Shown here: positions 34,404 through 51,854 of the stretch, piece by piece
How positions within the stretch are numbered: the first letter of the stretch is position 1
Layout: each line of letters opens with the position of its first letter
Translations under genes and position numbers: made by a program
Notes under the pieces: generated by a model
The model's input: only the letters and a program-made list of their open reading frames with translations
The model's database searches: none
Told to the model about the DNA's origin: nothing
Source of the DNA: Justusliebigvirus alia
Strand: one strand, 5' to 3'
Sequence record: OZ035799.1
Length of the DNA stretch: 64,000 nt

Positions 34404-37217
34404 ATGTATCCTATTCCTTTATTTATGTCAACAACATCAGCTTCAGTAGTAACAGCTACATCTATAACCACTTCATCTATTGGTATTGCAATAGTTGGTA
34501 GTAAAAAGCAACTGACATACACAGTTTCACCGGAAGATGGTGCGTTATTTGATATAGCTTTTTCATCTTCAGATAATACCAAAATGGTTATAGATAATAG
34601 TGGTATGATGGAGTTTGTTGCCGAAGGTGGTTTTGATGCAATAATGACAGCTAAAAATAATTTAGGTGCTGTCTTAACTGATCAATCTGGGGGTTATGCT
34701 TCAGAATTAAGCGTGTACACTGAAAGTCTATCAGCTATGGATGTAGGCACTACTCAACAGTTGGTTGCTACAATCAGTCCAGAAGGTGCTAAAGATCTTC
34801 CAGACATGGTAATTACGTACACCACAACAGATCCAGAAGTAGCTACTGTAAGCCCTACAGGATTAATAACTGCTCTTAAAGATGGCAATTGCCGTATAGG
34901 TTGTACTGCAACGTATCAAGGAACAGTTGTGGCCTCTGATAGTTCTTATTTAGGTGTTAATGCTATTCCTGTTATTTCTAATGTAACAGCCGTGGCAAAC
35001 AGCTATGGAGACGTTCGTGTTGCTTGGGATGTAACTGATCCTCTAGATGGTGATACTTATACTGTAGAAGTATTAGATTTAAGTAATAACAGTGTCCAGT
35101 GGACTACAACAACCACGAATACTTACGCCTACTTTGATATCTCTGACTCTATTCCTCTTTATGGGTTTGCTCCAACATACCTTAAAATTAGCGTTAAGAG
35201 CACCAAAGCAGCAGCCGTTATCTTTAATAACTCAATAGCTACAGATGATTCATTCATTAAAGAAGTTATTGTCTTTGCTGGACAAGATAACGTAAATGCA
35301 CACTTTACAGAACTATCTGGTGCAAATAAAGCAGCAATGAGTAGCACAACAGCCCGTAATGCATATGCTACGCAACGTGGTTTAGCAAATGCTGAAGTTC
35401 TTCCGTTAAATACAGCTTCTGGATCATCAGCAGCAGATAAATATGCTGACGATAAAGCTGGAACAGGTACACCAGACAACTACTGGTATGATCTGGATAA
35501 CACAGCAGATGGGCCATGCTTAACTAACTTTATCACTAAAGTCACACCTTATGCAAGTAAGGTTAAAGCCATTATTTGGGGACAAGGTGAAAATGATGCT
35601 GTATCAGCATCTTCAACTGTTGCAGGTAGATACAGTAACACTACACGTTACCATGATGCTACGATAGCTATCTTTGATAAGATGCGTACAATAGTTCCTG
35701 CTTCTCAAGCAAAAATTGTTTGGCAGATCCTGGGACGTTCTTATTTATATGGTGTAGAAGTTAATGGTGTGGATTGGCAGAAGTACAGAAATGTACAAAG
35801 AACCATCTCTACAGCACGTGATGATGTTATCATTGGTTCTTGGGTAGATGGTGCTGAACGTTACAGTGGTTATGTTTATGAAGAAGGTATTGATGGTCGT
35901 ATCCATTATATTTCTTCTGTATACCAAACAGCAGCTACAAAACTTGCTAAATCAGCAGCAGACGGTACAGACTTAACATCAACGTCACCTGTTTGGGTTG
36001 ATATGGCTGTTCCAACTGGAGCAACAGCTACTTCCCAACCTAATCAAGATACAATTTTAGCATGGGATGCTCAAGGCTATAGTAAACACTACTTCCGTAA
36101 TATTAACGTCTTAACCGCATCTGTATTAACTGAACAAACGCTTAATACGAACAGTTATACGTTTACCTATGCAGATCAAGTAGAACAATATGGTTTTGCA
36201 GCAGGAACTACTGTATTTGATGTTGCATATTATGACGAAGCAAATGATGTGTTATCTCCTTTAGTACGTTTTAATGTTAATGTTACACCAGGAACTGTCG
36301 TGATGGATTATGATTTGACACAAGAAACTCTTCCAGCAGATGTGCGCGTAAACAGGAGCAACCATTATGCTAGGGCTTCTGGAGATATCCTTGTACCGAC
36401 AGAGGTTTCTGCTCCTATAGCACCTTTAGAATATATTGGTACAACGCCACAAGGTAGACGTGTTGTAGCAGCCAGCCGTACATATATCTTTATCAACAAT
36501 AACTTGACAACAGCTTCCCCGTGGTTGAAGACGAACTTGACAGTTACAGCATCAACAATCAACTCTCCGGTTGGAACTACAGCTAACACTTACAAGTTAA
36601 CACCTTCTACAACTTCAGGACAACATATTTTATCAGCGGTGAATACAGCTTCTGATATTACAGCAGGTAAACAATGGGCTGCATCTGTATTCTTGAAACC
36701 AGACGGGATCACTAAAGTCAAGCTCAAATTGACTTCAGGAGATGAGGTTAACGAAGGGACTTATGATCTTGAAGCTGGAACATTTACAGGCACAGATGCA
36801 AATATGATCGACATGGGGAATGGTTGGTATCGTGTAATCTTACATAAAGTAACGATTGCTAAACAAGCCTCTATGACTTATGAGATTATAGCTTTGAATG
36901 CCAGTGGATCAGACACTTTTGCAGGAGACGGCACTGGAGGTCTTATTGCTTGGGTTCCACAACTTGAAATGGGTGATATGACAAACCCAGTTTGGGCGGG
37001 GACACCATTTGTTTGTACTTATGCACGAGACACAGATAGTGCTGCCACCTTCACTATTCCTAAGAACGGACACACTGGCGTGGATATTTACCACACAGAT
37101 GGAACTGTGCAAAGAGAGATTTTCACTGGCACAGCTACTACTTGGATGTTGTCATTCAACGCCGCAAGTGCGGATTGGGGATCGAAATTCATTTCTGGTT
37201 TGAAATATTACGACTAA
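34404..37217 (+). CDS. Receptor-binding protein with Ig-like (Big_2) domain and SASA-like carbohydrate esterase domain
   Basis: Big_2-like segment (VATVSPTGLITALKDGNCRIGCTA). Esterase motifs FAGQDNVNAHF (GQSN-like) and IIWGQGENDA (WxQGExD-like), typical of sialate O-acetylesterase (SASA) family. 937 aa. Confidence 0.55.
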   Translation: MYPIPLFMSTTSASVVTATSITTSSIGIAIVGSKKQLTYTVSPEDGALFDIAFSSSDNTKMVIDNSGMMEFVAEGGFDAIMTAKNNLGAVLTDQSGGYASELSVYTESLSAMDVGTTQQLVATISPEGAKDLPDMVITYTTTDPEVATVSPTGLITALKDGNCRIGCTATYQGTVVASDSSYLGVNAIPVISNVTAVANSYGDVRVAWDVTDPLDGDTYTVEVLDLSNNSVQWTTTTTNTYAYFDISDSIPLYGFAPTYLKISVKSTKAAAVIFNNSIATDDSFIKEVIVFAGQDNVNAHFTELSGANKAAMSSTTARNAYATQRGLANAEVLPLNTASGSSAADKYADDKAGTGTPDNYWYDLDNTADGPCLTNFITKVTPYASKVKAIIWGQGENDAVSASSTVAGRYSNTTRYHDATIAIFDKMRTIVPASQAKIVWQILGRSYLYGVEVNGVDWQKYRNVQRTISTARDDVIIGSWVDGAERYSGYVYEEGIDGRIHYISSVYQTAATKLAKSAADGTDLTSTSPVWVDMAVPTGATATSQPNQDTILAWDAQGYSKHYFRNINVLTASVLTEQTLNTNSYTFTYADQVEQYGFAAGTTVFDVAYYDEANDVLSPLVRFNVNVTPGTVVMDYDLTQETLPADVRVNRSNHYARASGDILVPTEVSAPIAPLEYIGTTPQGRRVVAASRTYIFINNNLTTASPWLKTNLTVTASTINSPVGTTANTYKLTPSTTSGQHILSAVNTASDITAGKQWAASVFLKPDGITKVKLKLTSGDEVNEGTYDLEAGTFTGTDANMIDMGNGWYRVILHKVTIAKQASMTYEIIALNASGSDTFAGDGTGGLIAWVPQLEMGDMTNPVWAGTPFVCTYARDTDSAATFTIPKNGHTGVDIYHTDGTVQREIFTGTATTWMLSFNAASADWGSKFISGLKYYD

Positions 37218-37250
37218 TAAAAAAGGAGCCTATTGGCTCCTTTTCTTTTA
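37216..37250. terminator. Bidirectional terminator at the point where the two gene blocks converge
   Basis: AGGAGCC-TATT-GGCTCCT flanked by an A-run upstream and a T-run downstream. Genes switch from plus to minus strand here. Confidence 0.7.
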
Positions 37251-37252
37251 TC

Positions 37253-37684
37253 TTAATCAGTGAAAATTACGCTTACATCTTCTTTAGAAAAGAGTTTATG
37301 ATCTTCACCTTTTGTCTCAAGAGTTTCATACAGGTTAAGAAGTTCTGAAACATCTTTCTCTACCAGTTTCTTCAATGTTGCAATTTTCTGTTTGCGACTC
37401 TTAATACGTTCAGCTACAACCTTACGTTGGTATCCAGCAGTACGATAACCTGAGAAAGTTACACCAGTGAGACTTGCAGTTACAGGATCGTAATGACGTT
37501 CAATCTGAAATTTATTAAAAGGTACAGCGTCATCACGAATAATCTTCCCGCCATTACTTACTTGACGAAGACCAGTAACTTGTTCTAGTCGTGCCATAGA
37601 AATCTTTGGAGACAGACCAGAGTCCAGGTTCATACCATTGTTAATCAGTGCTTTCAGGGTGATTTTGCTGTTCAGTGTACTCAT
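37253..37684 (-). CDS. Hypothetical protein
   Basis: 143 aa ORF with GGAGGA RBS located inside the 3' end of the methyltransferase gene; no recognised motif. Confidence 0.45.
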   Translation of the reverse strand: MSTLNSKITLKALINNGMNLDSGLSPKISMARLEQVTGLRQVSNGGKIIRDDAVPFNKFQIERHYDPVTASLTGVTFSGYRTAGYQRKVVAERIKSRKQKIATLKKLVEKDVSELLNLYETLETKGEDHKLFSKEDVSVIFTD

Positions 37685-38372
37685 TTAGTCGTTCCTCCGC
37701 TTGCTTAAAAATATTTACATCGGCTTCACAGCCTAAGTATTCTCTACCTGTTAAAAGTGCCGCAACTTGTGTTGTTGCACTTCCAGAGAAGAAGTCTAAG
37801 ACTACATCTCCTTCGTTGGTGTGTATATTAATAAGGTCACAAAACAAAGTCAAGTGTTTTTGTGTTGGATGAAAACGATCTGCTCCTTGATAGATAGGAT
37901 ACTCAAACACACCCTTATGGTAGGAAGCATTGAAGGTTGGCTTAGAACCTTTAACACAAACAATAGCCATTTCTTTAGCGTTACTAAGATAGTTAACACC
38001 ACTGTTGATGGGTACAGGGTTTGTTTTAATCCATTCGATAGTACGGAACATACGAAAACCAAGCGGTTCAAGGATTTCACGTAGCTCCTGGATCTTCCAG
38101 ATATCATACCAAACTATGCAAGTACCACCTTTTCTAAGCACCCTATAGGCTTCTTTGAATACTTCTTTAAAGTAAGGAATATCTACAACATCCCAATCAC
38201 CAAAGTTGTAAGATACACGGAATCTATCCGTATCTTTTCCAGTAGGCTCTCCAGACTGAAAATTTGTGTCACGAGAAATAGCATATGGTGGGTCAGTAAG
38301 AATCAAATCTACACTATTGCTTTCGAGGGTTTGCAGGTAGTTTAATGCAGTGTTGTTTACAAATTCGCTCAT
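37641..38372 (-). CDS. DNA methyltransferase (amino-methyltransferase, DPPY motif; N6-adenine or N4-cytosine)
   Basis: Motif IV LILTDPPYA precedes motif I VVLDFFSGSATT (beta-class order). No restriction endonuclease partner seen, so it looks like an orphan methyltransferase. Confidence 0.8.
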   Translation of the reverse strand: MSEFVNNTALNYLQTLESNSVDLILTDPPYAISRDTNFQSGEPTGKDTDRFRVSYNFGDWDVVDIPYFKEVFKEAYRVLRKGGTCIVWYDIWKIQELREILEPLGFRMFRTIEWIKTNPVPINSGVNYLSNAKEMAIVCVKGSKPTFNASYHKGVFEYPIYQGADRFHPTQKHLTLFCDLINIHTNEGDVVLDFFSGSATTQVAALLTGREYLGCEADVNIFKQAEERLNEYTEQQNHPESTD

Positions 38373-40440: not shown

Positions 40441-41037
40441 CTATCGTTTCCACTCTTTGTGTTGTTCTACATGCTCAAGCATTTCATTATATAGTGCTTT
40501 AAGATGTGGAACAACTCTTTCATCTTCAATTTCAAAGAATTTTGTAAGCTGTTCTGCCTTAGCCTTCAACCAACAAAGATGCGCTTCAATTTCAGTATTA
40601 AAACGTCCCAGCGTTTTCATGCGACCGTCTACTTTTATGTTGGCTTTATACTTTTTACGATCTTTCTCGTAACTACAGCCTACCATAGTCCCATGAGATC
40701 TTTTACTTACCCTATAAGCTAAGAACTTATTAAGATCTCCTGTTACTAAAAGACAGGTATTGGGAGAGTAAACTCTCCCTCCTATAATATCTTTATCAAG
40801 TTCTAAGTTTTCCCAGTTATCCCAAGTTTGCAACCAGGAGTAGAAATTGGAGAACAGTTTCCATTCTTCACAAACCGTCACCCCCTTATAACAAGGATCA
40901 CGTTCTTGTTGACAAGGGGAGTAACACCTCCCCAACATAGCCATCCATTTCATATAATGCGGCGTTAGTTTCTTACTACCAGGTAGCGTACTCTCGCCTT
41001 CCAAATCATTAATACCTTCACCATATACGGTAAGCAT
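40441..41037 (-). CDS. AP2-domain protein, putative free-standing homing endonuclease (HNH-like N-terminal region)
   Basis: C-terminal YKANIKVDGRMKTLGRFNTEIEAHLCWLKA fits the AP2 DNA-binding domain pattern. N-terminal Cys/Trp-rich region (WMAMLGRCY...VCEEW) is of the type seen in phage HNH-AP2 endonucleases. Confidence 0.5.
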   Translation of the reverse strand: MLTVYGEGINDLEGESTLPGSKKLTPHYMKWMAMLGRCYSPCQQERDPCYKGVTVCEEWKLFSNFYSWLQTWDNWENLELDKDIIGGRVYSPNTCLLVTGDLNKFLAYRVSKRSHGTMVGCSYEKDRKKYKANIKVDGRMKTLGRFNTEIEAHLCWLKAKAEQLTKFFEIEDERVVPHLKALYNEMLEHVEQHKEWKR

Positions 41038-44141: not shown

Positions 44142-45914
44142 TTAATAAGAACCAGCAGGAATATTCTCTGGGTTACTTGTGTATTGATCGTAATCGTGAA
44201 GTGTAGCTGTTTTAATCTCATAGAAGAAACTACCTGCTGCACCAGTCTCTGAGAACTCACGGTTCTTTAGAATGTAGCAATATGTGCGGTTACGTTCCAT
44301 AGGATCTTCAGCTTGTTTATCACGCTCCAGCGCAATTGTGATACCAGCACCTTTAGCAAGGAAGCTACTACCCATTGCATCATCTTCTACAATATGTTCA
44401 TTACTATTGTTAGAAGACTTTTTAACGTGTGAAATTACAACAATGGTTATTGCATACTCTTTCATAATGCGTTTCAGCCACGTCGCAAGTTCCTCTTGTT
44501 GTGACACGTCCATACCAGAAAGCAAATCAGAATAAGGGTCGATAACAAGAATGGTTACTCCGAAATAAATAATCATTTCCAGAACCTTCTCTTTAATCAC
44601 ATCTACGTTAGCTCCACGATCATCACAAACATAGAAACGTGGTGTTCCATCTTCCCGTTCGTAAAAATCACGAATCTTTTCTTCATTATCTTTTAAAATC
44701 TTTTCCTTCTCTTCTTTCGTTTTACGGTGAAGAGGGATATGCAAGAATGAAGACAGTAAGTTACGAGAATACTTCTTATACGTTGCCTCCAAAGATAAAA
44801 TACCAAGAGTATGTTCTGGGTGTGCAAGAATAATGTGTTTCGTAATCTCGTTAACCAACAGTGTCTTACCGATACTTGTTTTTGCAAGTATAACAGTAAT
44901 TTCTTCTTCTACCAAGCCTCCACCTAACATATTAGAAGCAACACGCATGAATGGAGGAAGGGTAATCATTTTAGCTTCCAGGCATTCCAAGGCTGCTTCA
45001 TACAGTACGTTAGAAGCGTAAACACCAGCAGGTGTGTATAGTTTAGCTTTGAAAAAGCGATCAATAAAATGATCAATTTTTCCTTCTACTAGTGCCTGGT
45101 TAGGATCTTTAACATCAGTTAGCTCCATCACGTAAACTTTATTACGTGGTAAGATTTTAACACATTTCTCAACTGCTGCACGTCCAGCTTCATCATTGTC
45201 CATACATAGAACAATCTTTTTAAATTGGTCTAAGAATTTATAACGATGTTGAAGCTGTTTATGCAGAGATGTTTCGCCACAAGTACCAGATACTACAGCA
45301 GGAACAGGATATTTACCACCCTTGTTATAATCTTTTAGCATCTGTGTTGCAGCCAGCATATCGTGTTCACCACCAACGATTAGAATAGTACCGCTGTGGT
45401 TACGATATTTAAACTCCCCAAAAAGATCACAATCCTTTCCTGTTTCACCGATAGGATGCGAGAAATCTTTTGGATCGATACGTTGTTTATACCCAGCAAT
45501 ATTGTAATCTTTAGTTGTAGGGTATAGTGTTGAAATTACTTCGCCAGTAGCTTCATCGTACATATAGCGTACACCGAAAGGTTTAGAGATATCTTCACGA
45601 ATACCGCGATAACCTTTTGGATTAGTTCCAGTGCTGGCTTTTAGTTTATCATGTACTTCTGGATTAAACTCACTACCCAAGATATCCTCCTCTTCAATTT
45701 CTTCGCCGTGTGCATTTAACCATTTTTGATCAGGGATAGTAAAGCCACAAGAAAAACAATGTGCGCCTCGATGGTCTTCATCGGCATCTAAGCCATATAC
45801 CATCAAATTGTTTTGTGATCGATCACGCCCTCCTTTCATACAACGAGGACACCCAGTATGTCCTTCTTGACTTAGATCAATGTTATACCCATATTTATTT
45901 ACAACATAAGACAC
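44142..45914 (-). CDS. Primase-helicase (T7 gp4-like: zinc finger, primase, DnaB-type helicase)
   Basis: N-terminal zinc ribbon CPRC...CFSCGF. Helicase Walker A SIGKT and Walker B-like VIDPY. Confidence 0.8.
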   Translation of the reverse strand: MSYVVNKYGYNIDLSQEGHTGCPRCMKGGRDRSQNNLMVYGLDADEDHRGAHCFSCGFTIPDQKWLNAHGEEIEEEDILGSEFNPEVHDKLKASTGTNPKGYRGIREDISKPFGVRYMYDEATGEVISTLYPTTKDYNIAGYKQRIDPKDFSHPIGETGKDCDLFGEFKYRNHSGTILIVGGEHDMLAATQMLKDYNKGGKYPVPAVVSGTCGETSLHKQLQHRYKFLDQFKKIVLCMDNDEAGRAAVEKCVKILPRNKVYVMELTDVKDPNQALVEGKIDHFIDRFFKAKLYTPAGVYASNVLYEAALECLEAKMITLPPFMRVASNMLGGGLVEEEITVILAKTSIGKTLLVNEITKHIILAHPEHTLGILSLEATYKKYSRNLLSSFLHIPLHRKTKEEKEKILKDNEEKIRDFYEREDGTPRFYVCDDRGANVDVIKEKVLEMIIYFGVTILVIDPYSDLLSGMDVSQQEELATWLKRIMKEYAITIVVISHVKKSSNNSNEHIVEDDAMGSSFLAKGAGITIALERDKQAEDPMERNRTYCYILKNREFSETGAAGSFFYEIKTATLHDYDQYTSNPENIPAGSY

Positions 45915-45926
45915 ATGATTCTCCTA

Positions 45927-46196
45927 CTAAAATGATTCGTTTGTCTCCATAATATATTGCATTTCCAAATCTTCCATATGTTTCTTAAATTGGTAAACAA
46001 TTTCCGATGGGGAAATATCTATATCAAAAAGTTCTTTTGTACCAGAATAAAACCTAATACCATCAACAATAAGACCACCATAATAATCCCAATCACTTTC
46101 TCGTGAGAAAGGGTTAGGTTCTTCATAATAGTAATCTACTTCAACAATAATAGGTTCTTTATTATCTTGTTTATACTCAAAATCAAAAGTGTTCAT
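45927..46196 (-). CDS. Hypothetical acidic protein
   Basis: 89 aa ORF, stop overlaps start of the downstream gene. Confidence 0.4.
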   Translation of the reverse strand: MNTFDFEYKQDNKEPIIVEVDYYYEEPNPFSRESDWDYYGGLIVDGIRFYSGTKELFDIDISPSEIVYQFKKHMEDLEMQYIMETNESF

Positions 46197-47140
46197 TATA
46201 AATCCTCGATAAGCAGTCTGCGGGTTTCATTTAAATCATCAATATTGTAGTTATCTCTTACATACTTAGCAAGAGCCAATCCTTTCTCAATACAAACATC
46301 AGGAGATTCGATTAAGTATTCTACAATATCTTTCCACTCTTTAACTGAATCAGCAAAGAAGATTAGATCTTTAAATTCTTCAGTATAATAGTTCTCTCGT
46401 GGCGAACAAACGAGTGGCAAACCTTTAGCACCAGCTTCAAGAATTTTTAAATTACTTTTGGCATTATTAAAATGATTATTTACTAACGGAGCTATGGAGA
46501 TTTGATGACCATCGTATGCTTCCATATAACACTCATAAGGACGAATACCTTCATAAACACAATCTGGTTGAATATCTTCTTTAATTTGCAACCATTGAGC
46601 ACTACTTAACTCTTCGTGATCTCTACGAAATCCACATAAAGTTAAATCTTTACCAAAACCAGGAAGAATAGCTAAATCATGTTTATGTGTTTCACTTCCC
46701 GCCCAAACCAGTGGACTTTTAGAATAACGGTCTTTTGTCAAAGTAAATTGACCTTCGTCGTAAGGTAGTGCGTTTCTAATAACGACAACATTACGATTTA
46801 AATGACGAATTTTGTAAGCTAGGTATTCTGTTGTTACAGTAACAACATCTGCTAACTTGACCATCTCTACGATAGTCTTTGAGTGATTAGCAAATACGCC
46901 AGCCATATAATGTTCAGGATTAAGTGAATAAAAGTCATCTAAATCAACAATAATCTTAACACCTTGTGCCTTGAGGCGTTTAACCTCGTCTGCTCCATGA
47001 GAATACACTCTATTAAAAACCAAAACGTCTTTCTTAGGTTTAAACGTATTTCCAGCAAATGGCATTACAATACGATGGTAATCACAACCACTGCCTAACT
47101 TATTATCACACTTAAGTACAGGAGTATTAGGATTTACCAT
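46196..47140 (-). CDS. Glycosyltransferase, GT-B fold (family 1-like)
   Basis: C-terminal motif SNLKILEAGAKGLPLVCS resembles the GT1 signature (K..EA.A.G.PvV). Start moved to the ATG at 47140 (RBS GAGGAGG). Confidence 0.6.
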   Translation of the reverse strand: MVNPNTPVLKCDNKLGSGCDYHRIVMPFAGNTFKPKKDVLVFNRVYSHGADEVKRLKAQGVKIIVDLDDFYSLNPEHYMAGVFANHSKTIVEMVKLADVVTVTTEYLAYKIRHLNRNVVVIRNALPYDEGQFTLTKDRYSKSPLVWAGSETHKHDLAILPGFGKDLTLCGFRRDHEELSSAQWLQIKEDIQPDCVYEGIRPYECYMEAYDGHQISIAPLVNNHFNNAKSNLKILEAGAKGLPLVCSPRENYYTEEFKDLIFFADSVKEWKDIVEYLIESPDVCIEKGLALAKYVRDNYNIDDLNETRRLLIEDL

Positions 47141-47813
47141 GTTTTTGAGCCTCCTCATAAGAGATAAAAGTTTTACCATTGCGAAGATCCTCCAGTGATT
47201 GTTTATATTGTTCCCAGTTTACACCAATCCCCTGTTCTTTCTCTTCTTTTGACAGATTCGCAAAAGGTAAAGGATTGTCTCCAAACACATCGTCAGGATG
47301 GATAAACGCCATAATTCGAATAGGACATGGTACGCCTTGAATACCTCGGTTCAAACCTGCCAGTGGAACGCGATGAATCCACTCTGCATCTTCATATCCA
47401 TAACCGTGGGTGTATGAGCGGAAATAGCCAGCTTTCTCAATAACTGCACGGGAATACATACCAAACTGGCACATTCCTAGCTCCCAAATAACCACTTCCC
47501 CTTCAATACCTTTTACTTTATCTTTAAAGTATTCAGGCATACCAAAGAAATCCCAACCATTTTCCTTCGCCTGTTTTACAAAATATGTTTCCCAACCTTG
47601 AACAACAGGATAGCAATCATCATCAAAAATAAACCAGTAATCATACCCTTCATCATAAAACTTTTTCATCAGTTCATTACGGGCATATGCAACACCTTTT
47701 CGTTCACGATCATACTGCACAACAAAAGTAGCATTAGGATCAGTCACAAGATAATCTTTAAGAGGACGCTTACCTACAGTAATAACACCAACACCGATTT
47801 TTGTATTTTCCAA
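47127..47813 (-). CDS. Glycosyltransferase-like protein (GT-A fold, DxD motif)
   Basis: FIFDDDCYP acidic motif and GYGYEDAEW; general GT-A-like layout. Weak, motif-only call. Confidence 0.4.
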   Translation of the reverse strand: MENTKIGVGVITVGKRPLKDYLVTDPNATFVVQYDRERKGVAYARNELMKKFYDEGYDYWFIFDDDCYPVVQGWETYFVKQAKENGWDFFGMPEYFKDKVKGIEGEVVIWELGMCQFGMYSRAVIEKAGYFRSYTHGYGYEDAEWIHRVPLAGLNRGIQGVPCPIRIMAFIHPDDVFGDNPLPFANLSKEEKEQGIGVNWEQYKQSLEDLRNGKTFISYEEAQKHGKS

Positions 47814-47822
47814 AATAACTCC

Positions 47823-48386
47823 TTAAATAATTTTATTCATGTCTTGACAATGTAAAAGGTGTGAAACAGCTTTCCTAGGATCATCACTACCTAAACGGTA
47901 TGTGTGAAATAAATATAACCCACGTAATAAACCTAGCCTTTTGTTGTTAGCATGTAATGCTTTAGAGAAAATTATATCAAACTGTATTGACCTTTCCTCA
48001 AAAGGTATTTCATTCCACAGGCTCTTACGAAAGAGAAGAAAGAATCCTGCTAAGATAGCATCTGTAGGTACTTCCTCTATTGAGTTTCCCCATTCTAGAT
48101 GTGCTCTTTTTGCAATCTCAATGTGGTGTAATATATTTGGATCTTCACTTCTTTCATTATTAAATAATTGATATGTTGATCCCAATCTATTACAAGATGC
48201 ACCAAGAACATCAAAATCAGGATTTGAACGGACTATTGATTCCAACCAAGCAGGTTGTTCTGGAAGAAGAAACATTGTATCAATGTCTCTTAGGCAAATC
48301 CAACTATCTTCTGGTAAGACACTTATTGTGTCATTGATACCTTTTCCAATATCTCCAGAAAGATAGGGAGTTATGTGAAATATCAT
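47823..48386 (-). CDS. Putative glycosyltransferase-like protein
   Basis: ICLRDIDTMF (DxD-like). Adjacent to two other glycosyltransferase candidates. Low-confidence motif call. Confidence 0.3.
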   Translation of the reverse strand: MIFHITPYLSGDIGKGINDTISVLPEDSWICLRDIDTMFLLPEQPAWLESIVRSNPDFDVLGASCNRLGSTYQLFNNERSEDPNILHHIEIAKRAHLEWGNSIEEVPTDAILAGFFLLFRKSLWNEIPFEERSIQFDIIFSKALHANNKRLGLLRGLYLFHTYRLGSDDPRKAVSHLLHCQDMNKII

Positions 48387-49134: not shown

Positions 49135-49644
49135 TTAGCGATAGAATTGATGTTCTTTGTAGCGGTACACTAGAACCATATCTTTTTCCCAGTGTGCTCT
49201 TATTGTAGATTTTTTAAAGTATAATGCTCCTTTTGTAATATCTAATGCAATTCGTAATTCTGGAAAATGCGTATCGAGATAAAGTAGACGTTCTGCTATA
49301 GCCTTAGCTTCCTTCCACTTATCACGTTCCATAACGTTGAATGTCTTTGTGTAAGAGAATTGTCCTTTTTGAAACAAAACTTCTTTTATAGTATCAGGGA
49401 AATATGAATCTCTAGCCCTATTTAATACTACATTACCAACAGCAGACATACCGCGCTTTCCTTGATTACGACTTTCTGCATAGATTGCACAAGCTAATAG
49501 ATTTTCTTTACTATCACGCTTTGTACACTTGTGAACTACTTTAGCAGTTTTTACGTTTGCAGCTTCGGCTTGCGCCACAACAGGTGTAAATGTAAAAGCA
49601 GTTAAGGATAGTAACGCAATTGCGACAAAGGTTTTTATTGACAA
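49135..49644 (-). CDS. Secreted cell-wall hydrolase (SleB/CwlJ Hydrolase_2-like), putative endolysin
   Basis: N-terminal signal peptide (IALLSLTAFTFTPVVAQA). Motifs LLACAIYAESRNQG, AVGNVVLNRARDS, FPDTIKEVLFQKGQFS match the SleB-type hydrolase family. TTG start with AGGAGG RBS. Confidence 0.6.
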   Translation of the reverse strand: MSIKTFVAIALLSLTAFTFTPVVAQAEAANVKTAKVVHKCTKRDSKENLLACAIYAESRNQGKRGMSAVGNVVLNRARDSYFPDTIKEVLFQKGQFSYTKTFNVMERDKWKEAKAIAERLLYLDTHFPELRIALDITKGALYFKKSTIRAHWEKDMVLVYRYKEHQFYR

Positions 49645-50349: not shown

Positions 50350-50383
50350 CTTCTATTTAAAATATGCGCCCCGAAGGGCGCTA
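50350..50383 (-). terminator. Hairpin terminator after TerD (minus strand)
   Basis: GCGCCC-TTCG-GGGCGC followed by an A/T-rich tail. Confidence 0.45.
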
Positions 50384-50390
50384 TGATTTA

Positions 50391-50987
50391 TTACTCGAAC
50401 CAATCGTCGCCAGCGCCAAACGCTTTAACTACATCATAAATGTCAAGTCCAGCTTTACCTACACCATATGCTTTCAGTTTCCATTCGTTATCTTCCCGCA
50501 CCAGGGAGGCAACGTGGCAAATGGTATTACCTGCAAGTTCTGGAGCCAAGAAGTCAAAGTCCAGCAGTTCAACGTTACGTTCATCATCGAAGATTTTAAG
50601 GAAACCTTCGGTAGCGTGACCAAGGCGTTTCTTACCCGTTTCGTCATCAATAGTAATTACGAATGCAATTTCCTGTGCTTCAGCAGAGATATTATCCAGT
50701 GTAACATCAATCTGCTCCATTTGCCCTACACCGTCACGAACATCTTCACCTGCAAAAGTAGAACGTTCAGGATCAAATTTCTGTGCGTAGCATACCAAGT
50801 GGCGAGGAGACAACAGTTCCGGCAGACCAGATGCATTGTGTCGGCAAATCAGAGCACTAACATCCAGATCCAGTTTTTCGTTAGATTTCCAAGAGAATTC
50901 CAGACGAATGCGTTTCAGTGCTGGTGCAATCTTTTTCAGAGAAACTTTTTCGCTAGAACCTTTTTTCAGGGAAATTTTCTGAGTCAT
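50391..50987 (-). CDS. terD: TerD-family stress protein (tellurite resistance TerD/TerE/TerZ-like)
   Basis: Matches TerD across its length when compared by eye with E. coli TerD as recalled: ISLKKGSSEKVSLKK, LDLDVSALIC, Ca-site-like FAGEDVRDGVG, IAFVITIDD, and C-terminal NEWKLKAYGVGKAGL. Confidence 0.85.
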   Translation of the reverse strand: MTQKISLKKGSSEKVSLKKIAPALKRIRLEFSWKSNEKLDLDVSALICRHNASGLPELLSPRHLVCYAQKFDPERSTFAGEDVRDGVGQMEQIDVTLDNISAEAQEIAFVITIDDETGKKRLGHATEGFLKIFDDERNVELLDFDFLAPELAGNTICHVASLVREDNEWKLKAYGVGKAGLDIYDVVKAFGAGDDWFE

Positions 50988-51059
50988 AATTTATTATCTC
51001 CTTTGTTGTTAATTTACGTTGTCTATTTTACTAATCTTTTCTACAAAGTCAAGCGTTTT

Positions 51060-51854
51060 TTACGCTTTTGCTCCAAATTTTTTAACCCACTCGCCAAACT
51101 CTTCAGATAGCAGTTTATCGTAAAGTTCTTCGTCAGACAAGGACAAATCTGCAATACCGATAAAATCAACATTATCGTATTCTTTTGCCAAGTCTTTCAG
51201 GAATTTAAAGTTTGCATTACCTACACCAACCATAAACCAGTAAACAGGAGTGTTGCGGTGTTTGTTCAGCAAACTACGTACTGCTGAAGTATCCATGTTC
51301 TCCCCGTCAGTTTGGAAGAAAATCATTGCAGGAGTACGATCAACTTGTGCATCAGTATCTACAACCTGTTCTACAACAGTACGTGTAACTTCTACACGTT
51401 CTTTTTTACCAGTTAGTTTAGCAAGGAAACCCTTAGCCGGAACTTCTTCATATTCAACGACTTCGCGTGTAATATTTTTCGTAGGTACACTACCGAAGTA
51501 TGTACCATAGATCTCTTGCATTACTGGAGCATAAGCTGTACCACCATTGATGCAAACATTAGACATGCAAGAGCCGACATAATCATCATATACATCAGCC
51601 GTTGCAGGAGGCAGTTCAAAAGAAGAACTATTGAAAGCCCACATGTCAATCTGTGCATTATCATCAAACTTCATACCAAACGGCAGCAGCTTACCTACAA
51701 AATCACTAACAGTGCCATCACGATACAGCTCACACATACTCCCCGAAATATCTAAGGCGCTACCGACACGAAGAACAACATCGTTAATCTTTTTCTTACG
51801 CAGAGATACAGTAAGAGTTTCTTGACGTTTTTTAAGACTGATTTTATTGGACAT
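51060..51854 (-). CDS. von Willebrand factor A domain protein (TerY-like)
   Basis: MIDAS motif DISGSM near the N-terminus, downstream Thr/Asp ligand candidates; adjacent to TerD. Confidence 0.65.
   Translation of the reverse strand: MSNKISLKKRQETLTVSLRKKKINDVVLRVGSALDISGSMCELYRDGTVSDFVGKLLPFGMKFDDNAQIDMWAFNSSSFELPPATADVYDDYVGSCMSNVCINGGTAYAPVMQEIYGTYFGSVPTKNITREVVEYEEVPAKGFLAKLTGKKERVEVTRTVVEQVVDTDAQVDRTPAMIFFQTDGENMDTSAVRSLLNKHRNTPVYWFMVGVGNANFKFLKDLAKEYDNVDFIGIADLSLSDEELYDKLLSEEFGEWVKKFGAKA

Follow-up and report, generated by a model that had tools for sequence, protein, structure and literature searches.

The 64,000-nucleotide stretch of DNA analysed here (Justusliebigvirus alia, record OZ035799.1; referred to below as the window) makes up the left 64 kb of a Justusliebigvirus genome, that of a phi92-like myovirus of E. 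coli, and encodes three tandem glycosyltransferases (GTs) on its minus strand at 46196-48386. The last of the three genes in the direction of transcription, which encodes an enzyme of the GT-B fold, is an in-frame fusion of two paralogues that are separate genes, gp164 and gp163, in phage phi92. The phi92 annotation had already identified these genes as encoding GTs; what is new is that GT-B paralogues have fused repeatedly at the interdomain linker, that a core cassette of three genes can be defined and that this cassette is linked to head-morphogenesis genes in unrelated phages. Literature searches returned no experimental work on these GT genes. The function that is favoured for the cassette, with a probability of about 0.45, is the assembly of a glycan on virion (head) proteins.

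Fusion of two GT-B paralogues

The gene products gp163-gp166 of phi92 (Justusliebigvirus/Stephanstirmvirinae) are the direct orthologues of the window enzymes, with about 98% DNA identity and the same site between gp167 and gp162, upstream of the primase-helicase gene; they are annotated as TreT-like, GT-B and ppGalNAc-T2-like folds. The two GT-B genes of phi92 lie in tandem, gp164 upstream and gp163 downstream, and are 35% (34-35%) identical in their N domains and 46% identical in their C domains. Whereas phi92 and nearly all relatives carry these as two separate genes, the window has a single N(gp164)-C(gp163) hybrid, and BLAST alignment with phi92 shows 986 bp to be missing from it, in frame. 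The region was matched by 56 phage records, 55/56 at 95-100% DNA identity and 1/56 at 90-95%. One of them, OZ035770.1 ('Justusliebigvirus alia'), is 100% identical to the window with the same coordinates, and the other 55 match at 95-99% (54 records) or 90-95% (one record). The listed relatives span 3787 bp each across the region, compared with 2801 bp of window query, and their annotation reads 'glycosyltransferase (x4)'; four GTs are present in at least 29 of the 30 listed relatives and, by inference, in 55/56 matching records.

The hybrid gene occupies 46196..47179 on the minus strand and encodes 327 aa, or 314 aa from an alternative start. Nearly all informative sites in gene nt 1-444 (46736..47179, minus strand), which encode the N-terminal Rossmann part, match phi92 gp164, and the protein identity of this part is 98% to the gp164 N domain versus 34-35% to that of gp163. 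Past gene nt 454 (46196..46726, minus strand) nearly all informative sites match gp163, and the C-terminal Rossmann part shares 99% identity with the C domain of gp163 versus 46% with that of gp164. A three-way DNA alignment places the switch between gene nt 444 and 454, at a 9-bp microhomology, AAAGACCGT (46727..46735, minus strand), which is common to both paralogues and codes for K-D-R of the interdomain linker (...NALPYDEGQFTLTKDR|YSKSPLVWAGS...). The window GT-B is an in-frame N(gp164)-C(gp163) fusion, in which the 986-bp deletion lies exactly between the two structural domains of the predicted model, and it originated by unequal recombination at the 9-bp linker microhomology.

At least five further full-length sequence variants have the same hybrid; they come from near-complete genomes and from independent data sets, including an SRR24315739 contig that has it within the identical three-GT layout. 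A different junction, ...GGASHEPDL|AILPDFGK..., is present in the hybrid P0189 (ERZ19634772), and a third, DEGQF|VLT, in P0068 and P0069, which belong to a lineage diverged by 25-30% (L007, a 144.8-kb contig with three GTs only). Altogether there are three different junctions in two lineages (window KDR|YSK, P0068 DEGQF|VLT and P0189 HEPDL|AILP). Their recurrence, the three junctions and the diverged three-GT lineage L007 argue that the fusions are real, viable and maintained, and the family-invariant residues are all retained in the hybrids. Further mosaics, P0072 and P0075, switch inside the C domain. None of the hybrids compared had the reciprocal N(gp163)-C(gp164) arrangement, as expected if hybrids arise by deletion between tandem genes ordered gp164 then gp163.

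It is extremely improbable that the three-gene state is an assembly artefact, produced by the collapse of two paralogues, or that the hybrid is a dead pseudogene. Such an error would fit the presence of the three-gene state in only 1/56 of the phage-collection records and the fact that record OZ035770.1 is unannotated, but the exact identity of the paralogues at the junction extends over just 9 bp, in DNA that is otherwise ~70% identical, which is far below assembler k-mers and too short for k-mer collapse. Several independent assemblies, which differ in sequence, also contain the in-frame hybrid, and it recurs with two other junctions and in a lineage that has diverged. Assembly collapse was rejected on the grounds of the short identity, the variants and the separate junctions of P0189 and of P0068/P0069. 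The retention of every family-invariant residue and a confident model of the 327-aa protein argue against a pseudogene.

The three glycosyltransferases

The initial annotation had placed three tandem GT-like genes at 46196-48386, and these coordinates correspond exactly to three minus-strand open reading frames (ORFs). Each product matched a PHROG glycosyltransferase family (187-aa protein, E 1.5e-112; 228-aa protein, E 1.8e-79; GT-B protein, E 4.7e-144), and the strength of these matches, together with the conservation of the three genes, is judged to be well beyond chance. No NCBIfam model matched any of the three proteins, and PDB sequence searches with single proteins and with family profiles gave nothing meaningful for any of them, so that fold comparison was needed.

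The 327-aa protein scored 27.5 bits against PF13524 (Glyco_trans_1_2), above the cutoff of 25, and 18.8 bits against PF13692, below the cutoff of 27. Its model, with a predicted local distance difference test score (pLDDT) of 90.5, has a linker connecting two Rossmann domains (at about residues 20-133 and 157-310), as expected of a two-domain GT-B enzyme, and its nearest structural neighbours were among GT4 enzymes. The earlier description of this gene as 'GT-B, family 1-like' is therefore right about the fold and about the Pfam 'group 1' name, but in CAZy terms the protein is GT4-like, not GT1. Two starts were considered. From the ATG at 47179, with GGAGGA 8 nt ahead of it, the product is 327 aa long and the gene shares 53 nt with the end of the 228-aa gene; from the ATG at 47140, with GAGGAGG 9 nt ahead of it, the product has 314 aa. 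Annotators of phi92 and JohannJBalmer picked different GT-B starts, and the first 20 residues of the long form are poorly modelled (pLDDT 54-62).

The 228-aa protein (47127..47813, minus strand; the phi92 gp165 orthologue) is a GT2/GT7/GT27-like GT-A glycosyltransferase. Its model (pLDDT 87.6) consists of a GT-A domain, a single Rossmann-like alpha/beta/alpha domain with a DxD metal/nucleotide-sugar motif and a downstream ED, and its invariant residues are R16, D64-D65-D66 (about 47616-47624) and Y138-G-x-E141-D142. The protein itself did not reach the Pfam GT2 and Glyco_transf_7C cutoffs, but these two families matched 11/19 members of the gp165-like family (best E 3.5e-5 and 6.9e-6, respectively). 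The sole Pfam family listed for it was TAGT (PF20691, TET-associated glycosyltransferase), the family of the T2/T6 beta-glucosyl-HMC-alpha-glucosyltransferase; the match (E 3.9e-05, 24.1 bits) is below the cutoff of 27.5 and covers residues 16-79, corresponding to model positions 37-100 of 205, that is, the nucleotide-binding and DxD region. Foldseek searches against viral structures gave generic viral GT-A matches, which did not discriminate DNA from protein acceptors. In the three-GT relative with the alternative junction (L008 3329-4014, ERZ19634772), the gp165-like gene is broken into ORFs of 127 aa and 61 aa; it is a pseudogene there or else was misassembled at low coverage (contig 'multi_6').

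The 187-aa protein (47823..48386, minus strand; the phi92 gp166 orthologue) gave no match in Pfam and NCBIfam scans, and its GT assignment comes from the glycosyltransferase families phrog_14179 (the E 1.5e-112 match) and phrog_26101. The invariant residues in an alignment of 27 sequences are D34-I-D36 (codons at about 48279-48287), N66-R67, H161-x-Y163-R164 and H176. A profile search extended the gp166-like family to 1225 clusters, in which it is often the C-terminal domain of ~400-aa multi-GT proteins with a TOD1/MUCI70-like GT, a GT2 or a methyltransferase as partner domain, and domains homologous to the 187-aa protein exceed the Pfam GT2 cutoffs (P0214 residues 17-164, 42.9 bits; P0201 residues 422-490, 44.4 bits). 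It is probably a minimal GT-A-like enzyme, an assignment that is supported but less firmly than that of its neighbour. The initial annotation of two GT-A-like genes with DxD motifs thus agrees with the model and motifs of the 228-aa protein and, less firmly, with the invariant D34-x-D36 of the 187-aa protein. The two families are not claimed as paralogues, since profile-profile comparison with hhalign was not significant (probability 1.5%).

Distribution and genomic neighbours of the cassette

The trio of gp166-like, gp165-like and GT-B genes recurs well outside the phi92-like phages. In an Enterobacter huaxiensis prophage it has the same order as in the window and is flanked by the lysis genes and the small terminase gene, a sugar-nucleotide epimerase/dehydratase gene being interspersed among its members, and in a Pseudomonas alliivorans prophage it follows directly on the major capsid gene, before the connector and tail genes, with gaps of 16-42 bp. 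A contig scan with a narrow peptide pattern gave 2 loci, while searching IMG/VR with the GT-B alignment was fruitful: of the 79 loci found with the GT-B profile, 38 have two or more members of the cassette. The arrangements found there include 166-165-B-B, 166-165-B, 165-B-166, 165-B and 166-B-B. In the smaller phages the one GT-B present is gp164-type; the gp163-type enzyme is an extra paralogue confined to large myoviruses. Composition also varies beyond the fusion, in that some large-phage relatives (L014-L016, IMG/VR) have 166-B-B and lack a gp165-like gene.

The cassette adjoins capsid, portal, protease or terminase genes in nine loci (L009, L010, L028, L032, L041, L042, L045, L047 and L048). 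Pfam matches confirmed in full the HK97-like order TerL-portal-prohead protease-HK97 capsid-[cassette] in L041, and likewise portal-prohead protease-HK97 capsid-[cassette] in L048 and a capsid gene immediately upstream of the cassette in L028; the same head-gene layout in L032, L042 and L045 was judged by ORF sizes. When 136 proteins encoded no more than four genes away from the cassette were scanned in 21 mid-sized loci, portal, capsid, prohead protease, head-completion protein and (large) terminase were the Pfam families met most often, and none of the 25 Pfam families listed for these neighbours was a nucleotide-modification family. As in the Che8-type systems discussed below, the GT cluster of this family is linked to virion structural genes, the window cassette itself lying in the replication module.

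The replication genes of the window are on the same strand beyond the GT genes, which are followed by an 89-aa ORF, the primase-helicase gene and the DNA polymerase gene. The initial annotation had put the GT genes immediately downstream of the primase-helicase gene in the same direction. The shared strand is correct, but the order is not: since every gene here is read from the minus strand, the primase-helicase gene comes after the GT genes, which are upstream (5') of it, with the 89-aa ORF between them, and 'downstream' is true in plus-strand coordinates only. The 89-aa ORF (45927..46196, minus strand; phi92 gp162-like; phrog_4240, E 8e-35) is conserved, and its homologue in the Vequintavirinae relative Salmonella phage PVP-SE1 (5533-5784) occurs where there are no GT genes; the ORF is part of the replication-module backbone and not of the cassette. 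Since PVP-SE1 has the flanking gene without the GTs, the position of the cassette beside the replication genes, although correctly noted in the initial annotation, looks like the result of an insertion into a conserved backbone and not like a functional association with replication. Taken across the loci compared, the trio is a mobile cassette of many unrelated phages that gained the gp163-type paralogue in the large phi92-like myoviruses.

Donor sugar

In the genome of the relative alia the genes rmlD, rmlC, rmlA and rmlB, which make up the complete RmlA-D pathway to deoxythymidine diphosphate (dTDP)-L-rhamnose, lie at 113.5-116.8 kb beside ribonucleotide reductase genes, outside the 64-kb window. 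The pathway has been noted in phi92-like and phAPEC8-like phages (Olsen et al., PMC7552041). A tblastn search of the phage collection with RmlC matched both 'Justusliebigvirus' records, a name that OZ035770.1 also bears, and homologues of RmlC and of the gp165-like protein were found in near-equal counts of enterobacterial phage records (Escherichia, 106 and 107, respectively; Klebsiella, 8 and 9; Campylobacter-labelled, 5 and 5; Phapecoctavirus, 3 and 3; Justusliebigvirus, 2 and 2). This co-occurrence, which is suggestive and no proof, points to at least one GT of the cassette as a putative rhamnosyltransferase, the inverting GT-A enzymes being the likelier candidates on general grounds.

Acceptor of the glycan

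The initial annotation was right to leave the acceptor open between DNA bases and virion proteins. Under the reading favoured here, the soluble GTs would act in sequence in the cytoplasm during infection and, drawing on host nucleotide sugars and the dTDP-L-rhamnose supplied by the phage RmlABCD enzymes, build a short oligosaccharide stepwise on an acceptor other than DNA, most probably proteins of the head or of other parts of the virion. Acceptor binding in GT-B enzymes is mainly the task of the N domain, and binding of the nucleotide-sugar donor mainly that of the C domain. By this general rule the hybrid is predicted to put the gp163 donor sugar directly on the gp164 acceptor, one step being skipped, and its glycan would then differ from that of the four-GT relatives, would probably be shorter and would provide a way of varying the sugar coat of the particle. 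The wider proposal, that a mobile gp166/gp165/gp164-like cassette glycosylates the capsids of phages of Gram-negative hosts, including phi92-like phages with phage-made dTDP-rhamnose, and that repeated linker recombination of GT-B paralogues changes the glycan coat, is put forward tentatively and is on balance doubtful.

Several points weigh against a glycan on virion proteins. No experiment shows any glycosylated virion protein in phi92-like phages, and no obvious Ser/Thr-rich C-terminal tail, a possible O-glycosylation site, was seen on the capsid and decoration proteins. The cassette of the window phage is among early/middle replication genes, not structural genes, and in some small phages a gap of 280-520 bp lies between the capsid gene and the cassette, which may therefore consist of independently expressed 'moron' genes. 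Che8 gp108-110 did not match any of the three family hidden Markov models (HMMs) at E<=10. The assignment of donor and acceptor domains in the hybrid would hold only as far as general knowledge of GT-B enzymes applies to it, and GT4-type enzymes are usually retaining, so that which of the GTs would use dTDP-rhamnose is a guess.

One alternative is glycosylation of DNA, in which the GTs and the phage dTDP-rhamnose would add a sugar to a modified base and so evade nucleases, as glucosyl-hydroxymethylcytosine (hmC) does in the T-even phages. Besides the genomic position, this would account for the weak similarity to TAGT and phrog_842 and for the R...DDD...ED pattern that the gp165-like protein has in common with phage DNA GT-A enzymes; it is nonetheless distinctly improbable. 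The TAGT match is sub-threshold (24.1 vs 27.5 bits), and small temperate phages carry the cassette by their head genes with no base-modification genes nearby. Neither a dCMP/dUMP hydroxymethylase nor a TET/JBP-like dioxygenase was found in the alia whole-genome annotation or among the candidates scanned, which did not include every hypothetical ORF; a C5-methyltransferase is present in alia, no dioxygenase was found among the neighbours scanned, and the sole thymidylate-synthase-like gene is of the ThyX type. The earlier remark that no hydroxymethylase is visible in the window therefore extends to a search of the alia genome annotation. Moreover, the phi92-like phages of the BASEL collection were reported to be exceptionally susceptible to restriction-modification (RM) 'despite a putative dTDP glycosylation machinery' (Maffei et al., PMC8594841), an indirect line of evidence against glycosylated DNA. 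It is on the absence of a hydroxymethylase or TET-like enzyme from the genes annotated or scanned, the reported RM sensitivity and the position by head genes that a virion-protein glycan is favoured over DNA glycosylation, and of the two acceptors named in the initial annotation the virion proteins are thus the better supported and DNA the weaker.

Two further acceptors were weighed. Remodelling of a host envelope glycan (lipopolysaccharide/O-antigen, enterobacterial common antigen or NGR glycan) during infection or lysogeny, by a conversion or 'moron' module that would block superinfection or keep progeny from sticking to cell debris, is unlikely: known phage seroconversion uses membrane proteins of the GtrA/GtrB/GtrC type or O-acetylases, whereas the cassette proteins model as compact soluble enzymes (327-aa and 228-aa models), and Pfam scans of the window proteins turned up no Gtr families. 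A strictly lytic phage would also have little time for O-antigen turnover, and in L010 the cassette is packed tightly between capsid and connector genes, its 16-42 bp gaps suggesting late co-transcription. Quite unlikely, too, is another kind of target (a non-structural protein of host or phage, a small molecule or an RNA), with inactivation of a host factor or a rhamnosylated metabolite as examples of the outcome. It would suit the small-molecule and protein GTs among the structural neighbours (BshA, TreT, sucrose-phosphate synthase, GtfA and SdgB), the expression of the cassette with early/middle genes here and the fact that no acceptor has been identified, but it leaves the conserved head-morphogenesis linkage across unrelated phages unexplained, and the presence of three to four GTs suggests assembly of an oligosaccharide over a single transfer.

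The ThyX of alia is itself unusual. The 'putative thymidylate synthase' gene (L005 22340-23311, outside the window) encodes an unusually long (323 aa) and divergent ThyX, which scores 38 bits against Pfam Thy1 and 35 bits against TIGR02170 (cutoff 88), and adjoins genes for an NT5C-like 5'-nucleotidase and a thymidine kinase.

Comparison with known systems

The mycobacteriophages glycosylate their own capsid and tail-tube proteins with phage GTs (Freeman et al. 2023, summarised in PMC12363180 and PMC11256854). Their systems (Che8 gp108-110, Corndog and Myrna) resemble the present cassette in being phage clusters of two or three soluble GTs, and differ from it in that the hosts here are Gram-negative and a phage dTDP-rhamnose pathway is present alongside. 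More than 350 mycobacteriophage records contain weak homologues of the gp165-like protein (E about 1e-7 at 25-27% identity), among them that of the cluster-F phage Ardmore, whose gp85 shows this homology at a locus syntenic with the Che8 glycosylation genes. Che8 gp108-110 were rejected as homologues for want of an HMM match, the link to mycobacteriophages being a different GT at a syntenic locus. At the position of the Che8 three-GT locus Ardmore (L093 2947-5688) encodes instead a 478-aa GT with a gp165-like N-domain, a kinase and a glucosyltransferase, which suggests that cluster F phages may have interchangeable glycosylation cassettes at one locus.

The cassette differs from the DNA glucosyltransferases of the T-even phages (T4 alpha-/beta-GT) in that no enzyme forming hmC or hydroxymethyluracil was found, the TAGT match is sub-threshold, the phages are RM-sensitive and there is linkage to head genes. 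Capsid glycosylation in chloroviruses is a parallel to the mechanism proposed here; the system of the eukaryotic giant virus uses UDP-rhamnose and is like the cassette at the level of the fold only. The spore-crust toolkit of Bacillus subtilis combines a GT-A enzyme (SpsA), Rml enzymes (SpsI-L) and a Pfam Glyco_trans_1_2 protein (CgeB), but it is a cellular system and nothing points to direct ancestry. In engineered GT-B chimeras of antibiotic and plant GTs, swaps of acceptor-binding N domains and donor-binding C domains give active enzymes with recombined specificities. The window hybrid appears comparable in joining the N and C domains of two paralogues at the linker; unlike these chimeras, hybrids of its type are natural and arose repeatedly, by deletion between tandem genes.

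Flanking genes and other features of the window

The primase-helicase gene (44142..45914, minus strand) was taken from the ORF list and is supported by primase/helicase annotation in relatives and by Pfam Toprim_2 and DnaB_C matches of an orthologue. An HNH endonuclease gene (40441-41037, minus strand), with the DNA polymerase gene on one side and a nucleotidyltransferase gene on the other, is a possible homing element inside the replication module. The sign of the GC skew flips at ~36000-38000, where plus-strand structural genes give way to minus-strand replication/early genes.

On the other side of the cassette, the gene at 49135-49644 (minus strand) encodes a SleB-type cell-wall hydrolase (Pfam Hydrolase_2, E 6.5e-20), the N-terminus of which is a hydrophobic signal- or signal-anchor-release-like segment, MSIKTFVAIALLSLTAFTFTPVVAQAEA, which points to an endolysin that is secreted or of the signal-anchor-release type. 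Just upstream of this region on the same strand, at 50391-51854 and further right, are tellurite-resistance-like stress genes (TerD, vWA-TerF-like), and in relatives TerC and 'tellurite resistance' are annotated in the stress-gene cluster. A scan for promoters and terminators gave sites no more numerous than in shuffled sequence and so did not define the operon boundaries, save for one strong hairpin at 50366-50381. This hairpin is GC-rich and perfectly paired (GCGCCC-TTCG-GGGCGC), has runs of T/A beside it on either strand in the manner of a bidirectional terminator, and is the sole strong terminator-like site near the cassette.

Implications

Whatever the acceptor, the recurrent N(gp164)-C(gp163) fusions are a clean natural case of GT-B domain shuffling at the linker, and such fusions are of use in glycoengineering and can mark the diversification of glycans. 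Were DNA the target, the system would amount to rhamnose-based DNA hypermodification without a known precursor pathway, which would be the more surprising outcome, but the evidence points away from it. To our knowledge, phage-encoded glycosylation of the virion has so far been shown in mycobacteriophages only, where it shields the particles from antibodies. The phi92-like phages have a broad host range and are used in therapy cocktails. If their particles, and those of many HK97-like phages of Enterobacteria and Pseudomonas, do carry a phage-made glycan, this would affect the immunogenicity and pharmacokinetics of therapeutic phages and would bear on particle stability, on adhesion to mucus and surfaces and on the reading of cryo-electron microscopy densities. 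It would also account for the presence of a full dTDP-rhamnose pathway in a lytic phage, and repeated recombination at the linker of the GT-B genes would give these phages a built-in means of varying the surface of the virus particle.

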